The position numbers were made by a program, and so were the translations under genes. Shown here in pieces: positions 10,875-26,439 of a stretch of 26,439 bases of DNA. The stretch's first letter is position 1; the number at the start of each line of letters is the position of its first letter. The notes under the pieces were generated by a model. It had not been told where the DNA came from and did not search any database. It saw only the letters and a program-made list of their open reading frames with translations. Source of the DNA: a virus (Duplodnaviria; Heunggongvirae; Uroviricota; Caudoviricetes); IMG/VR virus record IMGVR_UViG_2651869691_000005. One strand, written 5' to 3'.

Positions 10875-11306
10875 GGAGTTTACTCACATCTGACAAAATC
10901 AATATAAACAGCCCCTCCGGAGAGGGGCTGGAGAGTGGCGCTATGTGCCATTGCATGGTGCCGGGTGCCTCCCGGTGAATTCAGTACCAGCACCTGAATC
11001 CGCGATTATCCCATATACCTACTCGCTGATTGCCCCTCCGCACAGGGGGATTCACCATGCCAGTTTCTTTTAACAAACTCCCCGCAAACCAGACAACAGT
11101 CAACCGCCTGAATTGTGAAGTATTTAAAAATTTCTCCGGCTAACAGTCTGGCGTTTTCTTTTTCAGCAACGGGAAAGCAACAACCACCACACCCGCCACC
11201 AGTACACAGTCAGCCAGCACTGACATTATCCGGCTGCTGCAATGCCATTCACAAAAACAGTAAGCAATCACTTTTTACCGTAACAGGTGATAATCCAGAT
11301 ATGTAT

Positions 11307-11770: not shown

Positions 11771-11847
11771 TGGCGCGTTGTACTGGATTCGAACCAGTGA
11801 CCGATTGCTTAGAAGGCAATTGCTCTGTCCGGCTGAGCTAACAACGC
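11771..11847 (-). tRNA. tRNA-Arg (anticodon UCU)
   Basis: Reverse complement GCGTTGTTAGCTCAGCCGGACAGAGCAATTGCCTTCTAAGCAATCGGTCACTGGTTCGAATCCAGTACAACGCGCCA folds as a canonical cloverleaf with a TCT anticodon, TTCGAAT T-loop and encoded CCA. Confidence 0.8.
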
Positions 11848-11944: not shown

Positions 11945-12020
11945 TGGTGGCCCTTGCTGGATTTGAACCAGCGACCTGGCGATTATGAGTCGCTCGCTCT
12001 CACCACTGAGCTAAAGGGCC
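11945..12020 (-). tRNA. tRNA-Ile2 type (anticodon CAU, ileX/ileZ-like; elongator Met cannot be excluded from sequence alone)
   Basis: Reverse complement GGCCCTTTAGCTCAGTGGTGAGAGCGAGCGACTCATAATCGCCAGGTCGCTGGTTCAAATCCAGCAAGGGCCACCA; canonical cloverleaf, closely resembling E. coli ileX as recalled. Confidence 0.8.
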
Positions 12021-16112: not shown

Positions 16113-16268
16113 TTACTCCTCAGGTTCGTAAGCTGTGAAGACAGCGACCTCCGTCTGGCCGGTTCGGATTCGTACCTCGCAGAGGTCTTTCCTCGTTACC
16201 AGTGCCGTCACTATGACGGTTAAACAGATGACGATCAGGGCGATTAACATCGCCTTTTGCTGCTTCAT
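16113..16268 (-). CDS. hok: Hok/Gef-family type I toxin (51 aa; HokD/RelF-like)
   Basis: Found by manual translation (below the ORF-track size cutoff): MKQQKAMLIALIVICLTVIVTALVTRKDLCEVRIRTGQTEVAVFTAYEPEE, matching Hok/Gef family sequence as recalled. SD AAGGAG 8 nt upstream. A 19-codon upstream ORF (from 16322-16324) ends in ATGA overlap with the hok start. Confidence 0.8.
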   Translation of the reverse strand: MKQQKAMLIALIVICLTVIVTALVTRKDLCEVRIRTGQTEVAVFTAYEPEE

Positions 16269-16526
16269 AGCCTGCTTCTCCTTGACCTTTCGGTCCGTAA
16301 GAGGCTAATCTCTATGTGTCGCATAGATATGGCCTCAGATTAATGTTAAGCGTCTTGCAGGACGCGTAATGTTAACTGGGGCTTTTCTCTATCTGCCTTT
16401 TGGTGTTCATGCCTGAGACAGATAGCCTCAAGCACCCGCAGTCATTCTACTTAACTAAGATTTCCCCGCAAACCGTTTTTGTCCGGCACAGTAAATATCC
16501 AACTAAACCAATGGCGTTCGCTGTAT

Positions 16527-22780: not shown

Positions 22781-23257
22781 ATGCTTAGTGGTAAAGATTT
22801 AGGCCGAGCGATAGAGCAGGCCATTAACAAAAAAATTGCATCAGGAGCCGTCAAATCAAAGGCGGAAATCGCACGTCATTTCAAAGTCCAACCACCATCA
22901 ATCCATGACTGGATTAAGAAAGGTTCGATAAGTAAAGACAAACTTCCAGAACTATGGCGTTTCTTTTCTGATGTGGTTGGTCCAGAGCATTGGGGGCTTA
23001 ACGAATACCCCATACCAACCCCATCCACTTCAGATACAAAAAGTGAACTTTTAGACATAAACAGCCTTTATCAAGCCGCCTCTGATGAAAAAAGAGCAAT
23101 TGTGGCTTTCATCTTATCTGGAAATGCTACGGAGCCTAGTTGGGTTGATCATGACGTTCGCGCCTACATTGCCGCAATGGAAATGAAGGTAGCTAACTAT
23201 CTGAAAAATCAAGCATCAAAACGGAAAAGCCAGAACATCACCAAGACAGGAACTTAA
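22781..23257 (+). CDS. Prophage repressor (cI position; N-terminal HTH; no recognisable LexA/S24 autocleavage motifs)
   Basis: 158-aa ORF; N-terminal HTH (KSKAEIARHFKVQPPSIHDWIKKG). No Ala-Gly / Ser-Lys peptidase signature seen. Flanked by operator palindromes on both sides. Confidence 0.7.
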   Translation: MLSGKDLGRAIEQAINKKIASGAVKSKAEIARHFKVQPPSIHDWIKKGSISKDKLPELWRFFSDVVGPEHWGLNEYPIPTPSTSDTKSELLDINSLYQAASDEKRAIVAFILSGNATEPSWVDHDVRAYIAAMEMKVANYLKNQASKRKSQNITKTGT

Positions 23258-23352
23258 ACTTATATGGTCCGACGGGAAATTCCTAGTTCCCGTTAGTTAA
23301 CTCCTACTACCTCTTCCACAAACCATCACCTATTAGGTTGCGCCCAAATTAT

Positions 23353-23394
23353 TAGGCATAGCCTATTGACAAGTAATTAGGCATTTCCTATAGT
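23353..23394 (+). promoter_or_regulatory. OL-like operator/promoter: TAGGC-N3-GCCTA palindromes overlapping a plus-strand promoter (TTGACA-17-TATAGT)
   Basis: TAGGCATAGCCTA at 23353-23365 abuts TTGACA (23366-23371); a second, imperfect site TAGGCATTTCCTA (23378-23390) lies in the spacer; -10 TATAGT at 23389-23394. Reads into the early-left genes. Confidence 0.7.
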
Positions 23395-23575
23395 TTTCCC
23401 ATACCAACCCATCCCGTCCCACACAATACAGGGCAATACCTCGAGTTACCAGGCAGTGGTCACGGGTTAAGTAGCCAGCCCGAGGCGTAAGAACATGACG
23501 GCAGGGTTCAACTTTAATAACTATGCAGCAGGTTTTTGTTCCGCTACCCCGGCGTTAAGGGGAAATGAGGTCAGC

Positions 23576-23731
23576 ATGGATACTATCGATCTTGGCAACA
23601 GCGAATCTCTGGTATGTGGCGTGTTCCCCAACCAGTACGGTACGTTCACCGCAATGACGTATACCAAAAGCAAAACGTTTAAAACCGAATCTGGAGCGCG
23701 TCGCTGGCTGGAAAGAAATTCAGGTGGGTGA
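23576..23731 (+). CDS. Small early-left protein (51 aa; YdfA/YdaF-sized)
   Basis: ATG 23576 with SD GAGG 5 nt upstream: MDTIDLGNSESLVCGVFPNQYGTFTAMTYTKSKTFKTESGARRWLERNSGG. Size and position match the first gene of the Qin dicB operon as recalled. Confidence 0.45.
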   Translation: MDTIDLGNSESLVCGVFPNQYGTFTAMTYTKSKTFKTESGARRWLERNSGG

Positions 23732-23732
23732 T

Positions 23733-23861
23733 ATGGATTTCGACACAATCATGGAAAAGGCTTACGAAGAATACTTCGAAGGCCTTGCCGAAGGCGAAGA
23801 AGCTCACAGCTTCAACGAATTTAAACAGGTGCTTTCCAGTTCGGCAAAATCTAATGGCTGA
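23733..23861 (+). CDS. Small early-left protein (42 aa; YdfB/YdaG-sized)
   Basis: Manual translation from ATG 23733 (SD GGTGG): MDFDTIMEKAYEEYFEGLAEGEEAHSFNEFKQVLSSSAKSNG. Below the ORF-track size cutoff. Confidence 0.45.
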   Translation: MDFDTIMEKAYEEYFEGLAEGEEAHSFNEFKQVLSSSAKSNG

Positions 23862-23890
23862 TAAGCGAAACAGCACCGCGAGGAATCAGT

Positions 23891-24109
23891 ATGCAGAAAC
23901 GAGAACCCGTCATCATCGCGCCAGACTATACCAATGATGAACTTTATGAGTGGATGCACCAGAAAATTAATGCAGCGCAGGATCTGAAATGGGCTAATGA
24001 AGTCAGGGCTAAGCAGGCTGAAAATCTGTCCTCTCTGGAGCAGGATATCACCAATCTGGAAAAAGCAGCGGCATTAACCATTGCCAGAATGATTACATAC
24101 CCGCGTTAA
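23891..24109 (+). CDS. Small early-left protein (72 aa; YdfC-sized)
   Basis: ORF with SD GAGGAA 6 nt upstream: MQKREPVIIAPDYTNDELYEWMHQKINAAQDLKWANEVRAKQAENLSSLEQDITNLEKAAALTIARMITYPR. Confidence 0.5.
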   Translation: MQKREPVIIAPDYTNDELYEWMHQKINAAQDLKWANEVRAKQAENLSSLEQDITNLEKAAALTIARMITYPR

Positions 24110-24450
24110 TAGCTAACCAACGAAGCTAAGGTTGGTAATTAAGGAGTTCTCCACGGGTGAGGTGGAGTGCTTGCGCCGGACACGGGTGAGCATCCGGCAC
24201 TGACAGTTTACTGAAAGGATATTTCCCTGAAAAGTCAGACCATAACGCGAAAGCGCACGGCGAGGTAGCTGGTTCATAGATAGCCTGTCGTTAAATTTTC
24301 GTCGACCGTGCGCTTCCGGTTGTGGCAATCCGCGAAATGGCGCGGCGGTAAGTATGGCGGGGTTATTCCTTCCCCCGTTGAGGACACCGGGTTGTCAGGT
24401 TGACCATACGCTTAAGTGACAACCCCGCTGCAACGCCCTCTGTTATCAAT

Positions 24451-24508
24451 TTTCTGGTGACGTTTGGCGGTATCAGTTTTACTCCGTGACTGGTCTGCCG
24501 CCCTTTTT
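24451..24508 (+). ncRNA. dicF: DicF sRNA homologue
   Basis: TTTCTGGTGACGTTTGGCGGTATCAGTTTTACTCCGTGACTGGTCTGCCGCCCTTTTT matches the ~53-nt E. coli DicF sequence as I recall it, with one or two substitutions. Lies in a ~550-nt noncoding stretch of the early-left operon, as dicF does in Qin. Confidence 0.7.
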
Positions 24509-24682
24509 AAAGTGAGTTTTGTGATGCGGTGAATGCGGCTGAGCGCACGCGGAACAGTTAAAACCAAAAACAGTGTTATGGGTGGGCTCTCTGTATCCGG
24601 CGTTAATTGTTAACTGGTTAACGTCACCTGGAGGCACCAGGCACCGCATCAACAAAGTTCATTTGTAAAAATGGAGATAATT

Positions 24683-24904
24683 ATGATTGCTCATCACTTC
24701 GGAACTGATGAGATTCCTCGTCAGTGCGTGACTCCCGGTGATTATGTTATTCATAAAGGAAGAACATATATTGCTTCGGTAAACAACATTAAAAAACAAC
24801 GGCTCTATATTCGTGATTTTTCCACACAACACTGTATTAAGGAAACCATGATTAAAGTCTTCCTTGGTCGTGATGGTTTACCTGTAAAAGCAGAGTCATG
24901 GTGA
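24683..24904 (+). CDS. Small protein downstream of dicF (73 aa; at the DicB/KilR position, possible cell-division inhibitor)
   Basis: ATG 24683 with SD GGAG: [73 protein letters not shown]. Does not match DicB as I recall it; function inferred from position only. Confidence 0.4.
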
Positions 24905-25027: not shown

Positions 25028-26347
25028 ATGAGTAAAGTCTTTATTTGCGCCGCCATTCCGGACGAACAGGCAATAAAGGAAGAAGGTGCAGTTGCTGTAG
25101 CCACTGCCATTGAAGCCGGTGACGAACGCCGCGCCCGTGCCAAATTTACCTGGCAATTCCTGGAGCAATATCCGGCTGCTCAGGACTGCGCTTATAAATT
25201 TCTTATCTGCGAGGATAAACCCGGCATGCCCCGCCCTGCTATCGACTCCTGGGATACCGAATATATGCAGGAAAACCGCTGGGATGAGGAATCCGCTTCC
25301 TTTATTCCGGTCGAACCAGAATCCGAACCGATGAACGTCAATTTTGACAAACTGTCCCTTGAAGTACAGAACGCTGTCATGGTTAAGTTCGACACATGTG
25401 AAAACATCACCGTTGATATGGTGATTAGCGCGCAGGAATTGTTGCAGGAAGACATGGCAACATTCGACGGACATATCGTTGAAGCGTTGATGAAAATGCC
25501 AGAAGTTAACGCCATGTATCCGGAGCTTAAGCTGCATGCCATCGGGTGGGTTAAGCATAAATGTAAGCCTGGTGCCAAATGGCCCGAAATTCAGGCAGAA
25601 ATGCGCATCTGGAAAAAACGTCGCGAAGGTGAACGCAAGGAAACCGGAAAATACACGTCTGTTGTTGATCTCGCCCGCGCCAGAGTCCACCGACAGCACA
25701 CTGAAAACTCAGCAGAAAAAATCCCCCCTGTCACTGCAGTCATTCGTCGCGAATATAAGCAGACATGGAAAACACTGGATGACGAACTGGCCTACGCTCT
25801 CTGGCCTGGTGATGTGGATGCCGGAAACATTGACGGCAGCATCCATCGCTGGGCAAAAAATGAAGTTATCGACAACGACCGCGAAGACTGGAAGCGTATC
25901 TCGGCATCGATGCGCAAACAGCCTGATGCCCTTCGCTACGACCGCCAGACTATTTTTGGCCTTGTCCGTGAACGTCCGATCGACATTCACAAAGACCCTG
26001 TGGCACTGAACAAATACATTACTGAATACCTGACTACAAAGGGCGTGTTTGAAGATGAAGGAACAAATCAGAGCGCAACTGATACTCTCTCGTCGCCAGT
26101 ACCAGAAACTGATGCAGTGGAAACGGCAATTCCGGACAACGAAAAAACCGAATGCAAAGTGGAAGTCGAACCATCTGTAGAGCGTGAGGGGCCGTTCTAC
26201 TTCCTCTTCACCGACAAGGATGGCGAAAAATACGGTCGCGCAAACAAACTTTCTGGTCTGGATAAGGCGCTGGCTGCCGGGGCTACTGAAATCACGAAAG
26301 AAGAATATTTCGCCCGCAAAAACAGTACATACTCAGGTTCACGGTAA
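25028..26347 (+). CDS. Hypothetical acidic early-left protein (439 aa), probably C-terminally truncated by IS1 insertion
   Basis: Long ORF with SD; its TAA stop (26345-26347) lies inside the IS1 terminal repeat GGTAATGCTGCC..., so the native 3' end is probably missing. No family recognised. Confidence 0.6.
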   Translation: MSKVFICAAIPDEQAIKEEGAVAVATAIEAGDERRARAKFTWQFLEQYPAAQDCAYKFLICEDKPGMPRPAIDSWDTEYMQENRWDEESASFIPVEPESEPMNVNFDKLSLEVQNAVMVKFDTCENITVDMVISAQELLQEDMATFDGHIVEALMKMPEVNAMYPELKLHAIGWVKHKCKPGAKWPEIQAEMRIWKKRREGERKETGKYTSVVDLARARVHRQHTENSAEKIPPVTAVIRREYKQTWKTLDDELAYALWPGDVDAGNIDGSIHRWAKNEVIDNDREDWKRISASMRKQPDALRYDRQTIFGLVRERPIDIHKDPVALNKYITEYLTTKGVFEDEGTNQSATDTLSSPVPETDAVETAIPDNEKTECKVEVEPSVEREGPFYFLFTDKDGEKYGRANKLSGLDKALAAGATEITKEEYFARKNSTYSGSR

Positions 26348-26439
26348 TGCTGCCAACTTACTGATTTAGTGTATGATGGTGATTTTAAGGTGCTTGCGTG
26401 GCTTCCATTTCCATCAGATGTCCTTCCTGCTCCGCTACT
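26343..26439 (+). mobile_element. IS1 insertion sequence, left end only (continues beyond window)
   Basis: GGTAATGCTGCCAACTTACTGATTTAGTGTATGATGGTG... matches the IS1 terminal inverted repeat and leader as recalled, with several substitutions relative to the K-12 copies. The insA frame follows. Confidence 0.8.
26396..26439 (+). CDS. insA: IS1 InsA, N-terminal fragment (window edge)
   Basis: GTG at 26396 followed by ASISIRCPSCSAT, matching the InsA N-terminus (zinc-finger CPSC) as recalled. Confidence 0.7.

Follow-up and report, generated by a model that had tools for sequence, protein, structure and literature searches.

What does the long noncoding leader of the early-left operon in this prophage specify, and do the two adjacent stem-loops near its start, which share a loop sequence, mark a site at which the precursor of the DicF small RNA (sRNA) is recognised? 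The leader occupies positions 24110-24682 of the IMG/VR virus record IMGVR_UViG_2651869691_000005 (Caudoviricetes), a stretch of 26,439 nucleotides that was analysed over its full length and is referred to here as the window. A reading of the sequence made without database searches (the original prediction) had described about 550 nt of noncoding leader with a DicF homologue, tandem hairpins with identical loops and a long-range pairing, and had proposed that the loops form a protein- or RNase-recognition site. The comparisons presented here identify the region, in all likelihood, as a polycistronic leader, that of an early-left operon of the dicBF type in a defective lambdoid prophage, and the leader as the DicF precursor known from the Qin prophage of Escherichia coli K-12. 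The finding is mostly a known one, the classic DicF locus in a recurrent kil variant, and the idea about the loops is unsupported.

The noncoding stretch runs from the ydfC stop codon (24107-24109) to the ATG of kil (24683) and measures 573 nt, with no plus-strand open reading frame (ORF) of at least 30 aa within 24110-24307, in agreement with the leader first described. When aligned to the Qin dicB operon, a check that the original prediction had itself named, 24110-24663 is 96.9% identical to the K-12 ydfC-dicF-dicB intergenic region, and other Qin-type prophages reach 98%. Of 5426 complete E. coli genomes, more than 3500 carry most of this segment. Homology with Qin is lost at about 24663, i.e. 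before kil. The leader is also long and structured as had been supposed, the fold of the whole leader giving z = -4.85. Its elements, and the gene into which it leads, are the following.

24149-24167, plus strand: hairpin 1, a 6-bp stem (CTCCAC/GTGGAG) with the 7-nt loop GGGTGAG
24175-24198, plus strand: hairpin 2, a 6-bp stem (GCCGGA/TCCGGC) with the 12-nt loop CACGGGTGAGCA
24241-24324, plus strand: S1, a long interrupted helix of 24241-24260 with 24306-24324, and a variable apical part at 24261-24305
24317-24443, plus strand: M domain, a structured RNA that makes up the 5′ part of the 190-nt pre-DicF
24452-24508, plus strand: DicF sRNA (Rfam RF00039), consisting of seed region, intrinsic terminator hairpin and U-run
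24509-24669, plus strand: tail module, a 21-bp outer helix (24511-24531/24642-24663) around three hairpins, ending at the kil ribosome-binding site
24683-24904, plus strand: kil, encoding a KilR-type FtsZ/division inhibitor of 73 aa (PHROG 294)

The DicF homologue, placed by the original prediction at 24451-24508, aligns as DicF. The plus-strand segment 24452-24503 matches the full RF00039 model (positions 1-52) with 74.2 bits against a gathering score of 48, and the terminator hairpin (24466-24503) is followed by TTTTT at 24504-24508. Compared with K-12 DicF there is one difference, C to G at 24493 in the hairpin, and the 5′ region is identical. On every feature that can be checked the segment is confirmed as DicF, which makes this a re-identification of a known system. 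A further pairing was observed between the two ends of the region, as the DicF 5′ seed GGTGACGTT (24456-24464) is perfectly complementary to AACGTCACC (24620-24628) in the tail module; such pairing could mask the DicF seed in read-through transcripts.

In K-12, DicF arises through processing by RNase E as well as RNase III and represses ftsZ (PMC10448788, PMC5069750). Ragunathan et al. reported a 190-nt species with an RNase III-dependent 5′ end and a 53-nt species with an RNase E-dependent 5′ end, found no internal promoter, and saw both terminated and read-through transcripts (PMC10448788), while Balasubramanian et al. cite a 72-nt DicF whose 3′ end is cut by RNase III on the full-length mRNA (PMC5069750). 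The published 190-, 72- and 53-nt species, with their nuclease dependence, fit the S1 and tail helices by length. Counting 190 nt back from the end of the terminator (24508) leads to about 24319 in the 3′ arm of S1, and the sequence in Fig. S1 of PMC10448788 begins in the S1 apex and continues through the same arm. Because both fall on the 3′ arm, the long-range pairing noticed earlier is very probably the known RNase III site that gives the 190-nt pre-DicF its 5′ end. The pairing itself stands, GCGCACGG (24253-24260) with CCGTGCGC (24307-24314) being part of the longer interrupted helix S1 (24241-24260/24306-24324). RNAalifold applied to 19 diverse copies of S1 recovered 18 conserved pairs, four of them changed on both sides, under a hypervariable apex; diversity (pi) is 0.004-0.007 in the arms against 0.10 in the apex. 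The RNase E-generated 5′ end of DicF is placed, on the strength of the K-12 processing papers, in the AU-rich linker just before 24452.

A second long helix follows the terminator. The consensus fold of eight copies of the tail module contains 41 pairs, with the outer helix conserved throughout, and 72 nt counted from 24451 ends at about 24522, inside that 21-bp helix. The outer helix is a probable second RNase III substrate, cleavage of which would end the 72-nt DicF at about 24522. The tail module also matches part of the STnc100 model (RF02076, positions 26-154), with 37.6 bits (E = 1.9e-6) where the gathering score is 47; it is related to STnc100, below the family threshold, and not a member. 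When 23850-24750 was compared with Rfam at permissive thresholds the matches were DicF, the weak STnc100 and one chance match, and the hairpins and M matched nothing.

By homology and from the K-12 literature, the operon would work as follows. Transcription from the repressor-controlled promoter would continue through ydfABC into the leader, RNase III would cleave S1 (24241-24324) to leave an RNA of about 190 nt with its 5′ end at the base of M, and RNase E would cleave the AU-rich linker to yield the 53-nt DicF, whose 3′ end is its own intrinsic terminator (24508). Where transcripts read through, cleavage of the 21-bp outer helix of the tail by RNase III would produce the 72-nt DicF and might also give the downstream mRNA a processed 5′ end. 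DicF would then repress translation of ftsZ.

The gene downstream of the leader is where the locus departs from Qin. The original prediction held that the 73-aa gene is not dicB and that the locus may be a variant dicF cassette, and both suggestions proved right, as kil stands in place of dicB. The ORF matches PHROG 294, ‘Kil protein for bacterial septation inhibition’, over residues 1-72 (E = 8e-33), and its homologues carry the PGAP labels ‘kil’ in a 99.8% identical locus (L001) and ‘kilR’ in K-12 Rac. Pfam has no model for kil; its DNA is about 85% identical to K-12 kilR. The DicF-kil junction recurs in 148 of the 5426 complete E. coli genomes, with the best matches in O121:H19 strains (99.7%), and among 221 classifiable viral-contig loci it was found in 17, against 194 with dicB. 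A tail module of about 160 nt is common to Qin, where it precedes dicB, and K-12 Rac, where it precedes kilR. Since both prophages carry it, the simplest origin we infer for the DicF-kil cassette is recombination within the tail module. As a Rac-type kil replaces dicB, the cassette would still deliver two FtsZ-directed division inhibitors, DicF and Kil. In near-identical genomes RefSeq/PGAP annotates a partial ‘DicB’ pseudogene over the equivalent of 24573-24656 (3464-3547 in L001), inside the tail RNA module and upstream of kil; this annotation looks like a spurious artefact.

Between S1 and the DicF linker lies the M domain. Its fold comprises a closing helix, two hairpins (one hypervariable in sequence and always a hairpin), a short helix and a long hairpin, the loop of which is paired to a strand upstream. 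The helices are P1 (24319-26/24427-34), P2 (24330-34/24341-45), P3 (24358-62/24373-77) and P4 (24389-97/24417-25), and the pseudoknot joins 24352-57 to 24404-09 (GUAUGG with CCAUAC). When 21 diverse copies are counted, 97.1% of cells are paired, which drops to 34-53% if the partners are slid, and seven pairs are changed on both sides; the minimum-free-energy fold of the single sequence gives the same helices. The covariance model built from M scores 148 bits at 24317-24443, the sole copy in the window, and M had no match in Rfam even at E ≤ 10. Copies were also found in the Pban leader of phage P1, where M is annotated merely as a ‘dicF-like region’, in phage Ayreon, in Stx2c phages and in prophages of Citrobacter, Trabulsiella and Erwinia. 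In Citrobacter and Erwinia, M lies between a repressor gene and downstream genes, which are xis-int-like in Citrobacter. An intrinsic terminator follows 49-141 nt after M in 97 of 100 unique copies, and at least ten unrelated linker/terminator sequences occupy this position, DicF being one of them.

We tentatively propose that M represents an undescribed RNA class of about 125 nt, four-helix and pseudoknotted, which occurs after early promoters of enterobacterial temperate phages and is followed by a variable single-stranded seed and a terminator; it may act in cis on terminator read-through, or on the RNase E-dependent release or stability of interchangeable DicF-like sRNAs. Its status as undescribed derives from Rfam, and such modules may be described in the older dicF literature (Faubladier and Bouche 1990, 1994) or in the paper on the P1 genome. 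The segment GUUGUGG (24319-24325) can pair either with the S1 5′ arm (24241-24246) or, in the closing helix of M, with the 3′ strand (24428-24434). The two pairings are mutually exclusive, and RNase III cleavage would therefore release GUUGUGG to close M.

The tandem hairpins lie further upstream, about 120 nt from the 5′ end of the 190-nt pre-DicF. Both exist and the motif that they share is even longer than predicted, a 10-mer rather than a 9-mer, but the coordinates given earlier were off by 1 and about 4 nt (24149-24167 rather than 24148-24166, and 24175-24198 rather than about 24171-24194). The 10-mer CACGGGTGAG occurs at 24152-24161 and 24181-24190, which are the sole exact copies of the predicted 9-mer in the 26-kb window; its first three bases (CAC) belong to the stem in hairpin 1 and to the loop in hairpin 2. 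The local fold recovers both hairpins with -25.7 kcal/mol (z = -1.78), and 10 of 200 shuffled sequences were as stable. Two viral contigs (L306 and L215) have a 29-nt deletion, corresponding to 24152-24180 of the window, that fuses both CACGGGTGAG repeats, which indicates recombination between direct repeats.

Copies for comparison were gathered independently of the hairpins, from loci anchored on YdfC or on M, and additional copies came from a double-motif search of viral contigs and from BLAST against annotated phages. In 52 unique full-length leaders, substitutions occur at 8 of 19 loop sites and at 2 of 24 stem sites. The stem of hairpin 1 is invariant in 51 of these leaders and its loop varies at four of seven sites, with variants including GGATGAG, GGGTCAG, TGGTCAG and AGGCGAA. 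Loop variants of hairpin 2 include GGATAAG (about 32 loci), GGGTGAA, GGGTAAG and GGGTGCG, and its stem variants are either wobble pairs (TCCGGT, TTCGGC) or mismatches (TACGGC, TCCGGA) and are never compensated. The stem variants that are informative as to strand are mostly G-U in plus-strand RNA (TCCGGT, TTCGGC). In K-12 Qin the two loops differ and the basal pair of hairpin 2 is mismatched. Hairpin 1 is absent from Stx-phage copies, of which TL-2011c and PA2 retain only hairpin 2, with the loop GGGTAAA, in the 5′ untranslated region (UTR) of another gene. Hairpin 2 is kept in Qin-type leaders and is also found apart from them in phi367, TL-2011c and PA2; phage phi367 carries the 73-nt hairpin module alone. 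In some leaders that have DicF-type terminators, hairpin 1 is missing or a different hairpin stands alone, and Rac-type leaders have a different single hairpin at this position.

Because the loops vary, the stems do not, and the hairpins lie outside the 190-nt precursor, a structural role is favoured over a loop-specific site. The tandem hairpins (24149-24198) are possibly plain plus-strand structural elements in which the stems matter and the loops do not, serving stability or as a processing boundary, a reading that we hold tentatively. A strain that lacks RNase III loses the ydfA transcript (PMC10448788), which suggests that processing stabilises the upstream part. With low confidence, the ydfABC fragment left by S1 cleavage would end just past the hairpins, which would protect its 3′ end; where the module occurs alone upstream of other genes it might, again with low confidence, act as a 5′-UTR hairpin. 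Several points weigh against this picture. The stability of the hairpins is ordinary, as the z score above indicates, and in the whole-leader fold an alternative pairing competes with hairpin 2. The covariation across homologous prophages that the original prediction had named as a check did not appear in the stems, since no compensatory pair was seen across the viral contigs, the ydfC- and M-anchored loci and the phages compared by BLAST; in one clade (14 loci) a mismatch is tolerated in the stem of hairpin 2. The stems could equally be conserved because the DNA itself, or the minus strand, is under constraint. As to processing, the scheme for this prophage rests on K-12 data and homology, the RNase III sites having been located by RNA length and by the sequence in a supplementary figure.

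Other readings of the hairpins have to be set beside the structural one. In the original prediction the identical loops together are recognised, as a bipartite site, by a protein or RNase acting on the DicF precursor, and the exact 10-mer, repeated 29 nt apart and unique in the window, does invite such a reading; both loops are identical in most ydfC-linked copies, and by our own estimate some 10-mer would be repeated by chance within 30 nt, in a stretch of 570 nt, with a probability of roughly 0.02. It is nevertheless very unlikely. Among natural relatives the loops vary freely, unlike the stems, and K-12 Qin, where processing was demonstrated, has non-identical loops. The documented cleavages map elsewhere, to S1 (24241-24324), the AU-rich linker before 24452 and the helix after the terminator (PMC10448788, PMC5069750), the motif falls half within the stem of hairpin 1 and wholly within the loop of hairpin 2, and Stx-type copies have hairpin 2 only. 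The identity of the two loops is a lineage-specific coincidence and not a conserved signal. That the module encodes a 10-codon leader peptide is hardly credible. A reading frame is present, with a Shine-Dalgarno sequence (AAGGAG), a GTG start at 24157 in loop 1 and a TGA stop at 24187 in loop 2, and one loop 1 variant has ATG for GTG while loop 2 variants retain a stop (TGA to TAA), but the common variants GGGTCAG and TGGTCAG abolish the start codon, the stop codon is lost in K-12, the frame of the B20105 type is closed by a stop after two codons, and the spacing from Shine-Dalgarno to start is 10 nt. The peptide was rejected on the loop variants. CsrA-type GGA loops, seen in minority variants only, were rejected as well.

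A serious alternative, which we consider unlikely, is that the hairpin module is the upstream or 5′-UTR region of minus-strand moron genes, comparable with sieB in Rac, and persists here as a remnant beside ydfC after gene loss. About 35-40 of 207 loci have a minus-strand ORF that starts beside the module with a common Shine-Dalgarno sequence AGGAGGGTGA, at least three unrelated minus-strand proteins are involved, two of them in PHROG families (18692, 2605), the module of phi367 lies between divergent genes, and K-12 Rac carries the minus-strand sieB at the equivalent place. However, a consensus sigma-70 promoter was not found on the minus strand in the window, N25 or Rac, 167 of the 207 copies adjoin ydfC without a minus-strand gene and are still conserved, hairpin 2 of Stx phages lies between plus-strand genes, and the G-U variants slightly favour plus-strand RNA. 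The remaining rival turns to the terminator: a leader element, the hairpins or more plausibly M, would act on RNA polymerase in cis so that transcription continues past the DicF terminator into kil or dicB; it would be a protein-independent antiterminator like HK022 put. The operon lacks both an N-like gene and boxA, M stands between early promoter and intrinsic terminator in Qin-type prophages, the P1 Pban leader, Ayreon and the Citrobacter and Erwinia prophages, and the terminator is retained after M in nearly all unique copies (97/100) although linkers and terminators are unrelated in sequence. K-12 yields both terminated and read-through transcripts, and two N-encoding phages with the same leader are without M. 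Such an antiterminator likewise appears unlikely, as putL and putR differ from these elements in sequence and architecture, the rightward operon has no second copy, and Rac lacks both N and M, yet has a terminator and kilR; the association of M with a terminator is equally expected for a processed sRNA family with a common 5′ handle.

Two candidates on the minus strand were examined by themselves. A weak promoter (TTTTCA-17-TAAACT, 8/12, by eye) was unconvincing, and a minus-strand ORF across the module, open in the window over 71 aa, was judged non-coding, since it is interrupted in N25 and the loop substitutions are non-synonymous. The minus-strand ORFs that lie beside the module in other loci (L208, 1208-1486; L210, 1272-1481; L003, 3756-3977) are mutually unrelated.

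The genes around the leader are arranged as promoter, ydfA, ydfB, ydfC, leader, kil and exonuclease. As in Qin-type dicBF operons, ydfA, ydfB and ydfC lie upstream of dicF behind a repressor-controlled promoter; dicB (and ydfD) do not follow dicF, the downstream ORF being Kil. The features outside the leader are the following.

22781-23257: repressor gene, upstream of the promoter-like site
23366-23394, plus strand: promoter-like site TTGACA-17-TATAGT, with 11 of 12 consensus matches, the sole site found in 23200-24750
23576-23731, plus strand: ydfA homologue (DUF1391; Pfam PF07151, E = 4e-26), positioned as ydfA in the annotated loci L001 and L002
23733-23861, plus strand: ydfB homologue, matching in position and length the ydfB annotated in L001 and L002
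23891-24109, plus strand: ydfC homologue of 72 aa (PHROG 1744, E = 2e-38), annotated as ydfC in the 99.8% identical locus
25028-26347, plus strand: RecE-like exonuclease, N-terminal 439 aa of 823, with 97% identity to residues 1-439 of the L001 homologue

The site at 23366-23394, upstream of ydfA, is probably the equivalent of dicBp, a pL-type promoter, because it is placed between the repressor gene and ydfA as in Qin; its function is inferred. Upstream of ydfABC, the repressor gene is accompanied by divergent genes of the YdaS/YdaT type. The exonuclease ORF ends at residue 439 of 823, at about 26344, where IS1-like sequence begins (26344-26439), which we take to be an IS1-type terminal inverted repeat. 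As the ORF is broken there by the IS1-like end, the prophage is defective. Elsewhere in the window Rfam matched, all on the minus strand, a full STnc100 sRNA (10900-11089), a sok antitoxin RNA of the hok/sok type (16266-16437) and two tRNA genes (11774-11847 and 11948-12020).

These results indicate that DicF can be coupled to either of two unrelated FtsZ-directed inhibitors, DicB or Kil, via a common RNA tail module, which appears to be both a recombination joint and an RNase III site. Alignments of diverse copies portray the leader as a chain of separately mobile RNA modules with conserved helices and variable apices. One of these, M, has been conserved, with covariation, in phages and prophages from P1 to those of Erwinia, and it is absent from Rfam. 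It may serve as a handle in the release or stabilisation of an sRNA, or else control read-through in cis, and it makes an old question, how expression of dicB or kil passes the DicF terminator, directly testable.

Among known systems, lambda-type N/nut was rejected, as neither a CGCTCTTTA-like boxA site in 23200-24700 nor an N-like ORF between the promoter and kil was found. The putL and putR sites of HK022, whose RNAs bind the zinc-binding domain of the RNA polymerase beta′ subunit and suppress termination, resemble the present leader in consisting of two adjacent stem-loops (as the hairpins do) or a compact multi-helix RNA (as M does) in a nascent early transcript without N, upstream of a terminator that has to be read through. 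The hairpins measure 19 and 24 nt against about 35 nt for each stem-loop of put and lie 750 nt from the promoter, while M is a four-helix pseudoknot of about 125 nt, present in one copy per prophage. The putL/putR sequences (NC_002166) showed no similarity to the hairpins or M, the M model had no match in the HK022 immunity region, and the 26-kb window contains a single M copy and a single hairpin pair rather than one per early operon. An identity of the hairpins or M with HK022 put RNA was rejected on sequence and copy number.

The STnc100/PasD sRNAs (RF02076; Zhu, Shabalina and Storz preprint, 2026) share with the tail module the GGTGAAT motif, the TCACCNGGAGGCACCNGGCACC hairpin and a long closing helix around several hairpins. 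They are free-standing sRNAs of the late region, whereas the tail module is part of an operon leader before a start codon. The AgvB/AsxR anti-sRNAs, located in the late region, are unrelated.

The ‘dicF-like region’ of the phage P1 Pban leader contains M (88.7 bits with the model built here) and then an intrinsic terminator, directly after a repressor-controlled early promoter; it is without the DicF seed, the tandem hairpins, S1 and the tail module, and tRNA genes and the ban operon follow downstream. The Rac kilR locus (sieB - leader - kilR - ydaE - racC - recE) has a Kil of the same family with the tail module directly before it, and an S1-type long helix and an intrinsic terminator in the same order. 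It lacks the DicF seed, M and the tandem hairpins, has instead a single different hairpin (ACCACC...GGTGGT), and carries the opposite-strand sieB where the window has ydfC. K-12 Qin dicBF shares with the window the upstream gene order, the long helices matching the RNase III and RNase E products, and the tail module reaching to the ribosome-binding site. The two differ in that Qin has dicB-ydfD downstream where the window has kil (73 aa), in hairpin 2, which in Qin has the loop GGGTGCG and a basal mismatch and in the window GGGTGAG and an intact basal pair, and in the repressor/anti-repressor genes, which in the window are of the Rac-like YdaS/YdaT type.

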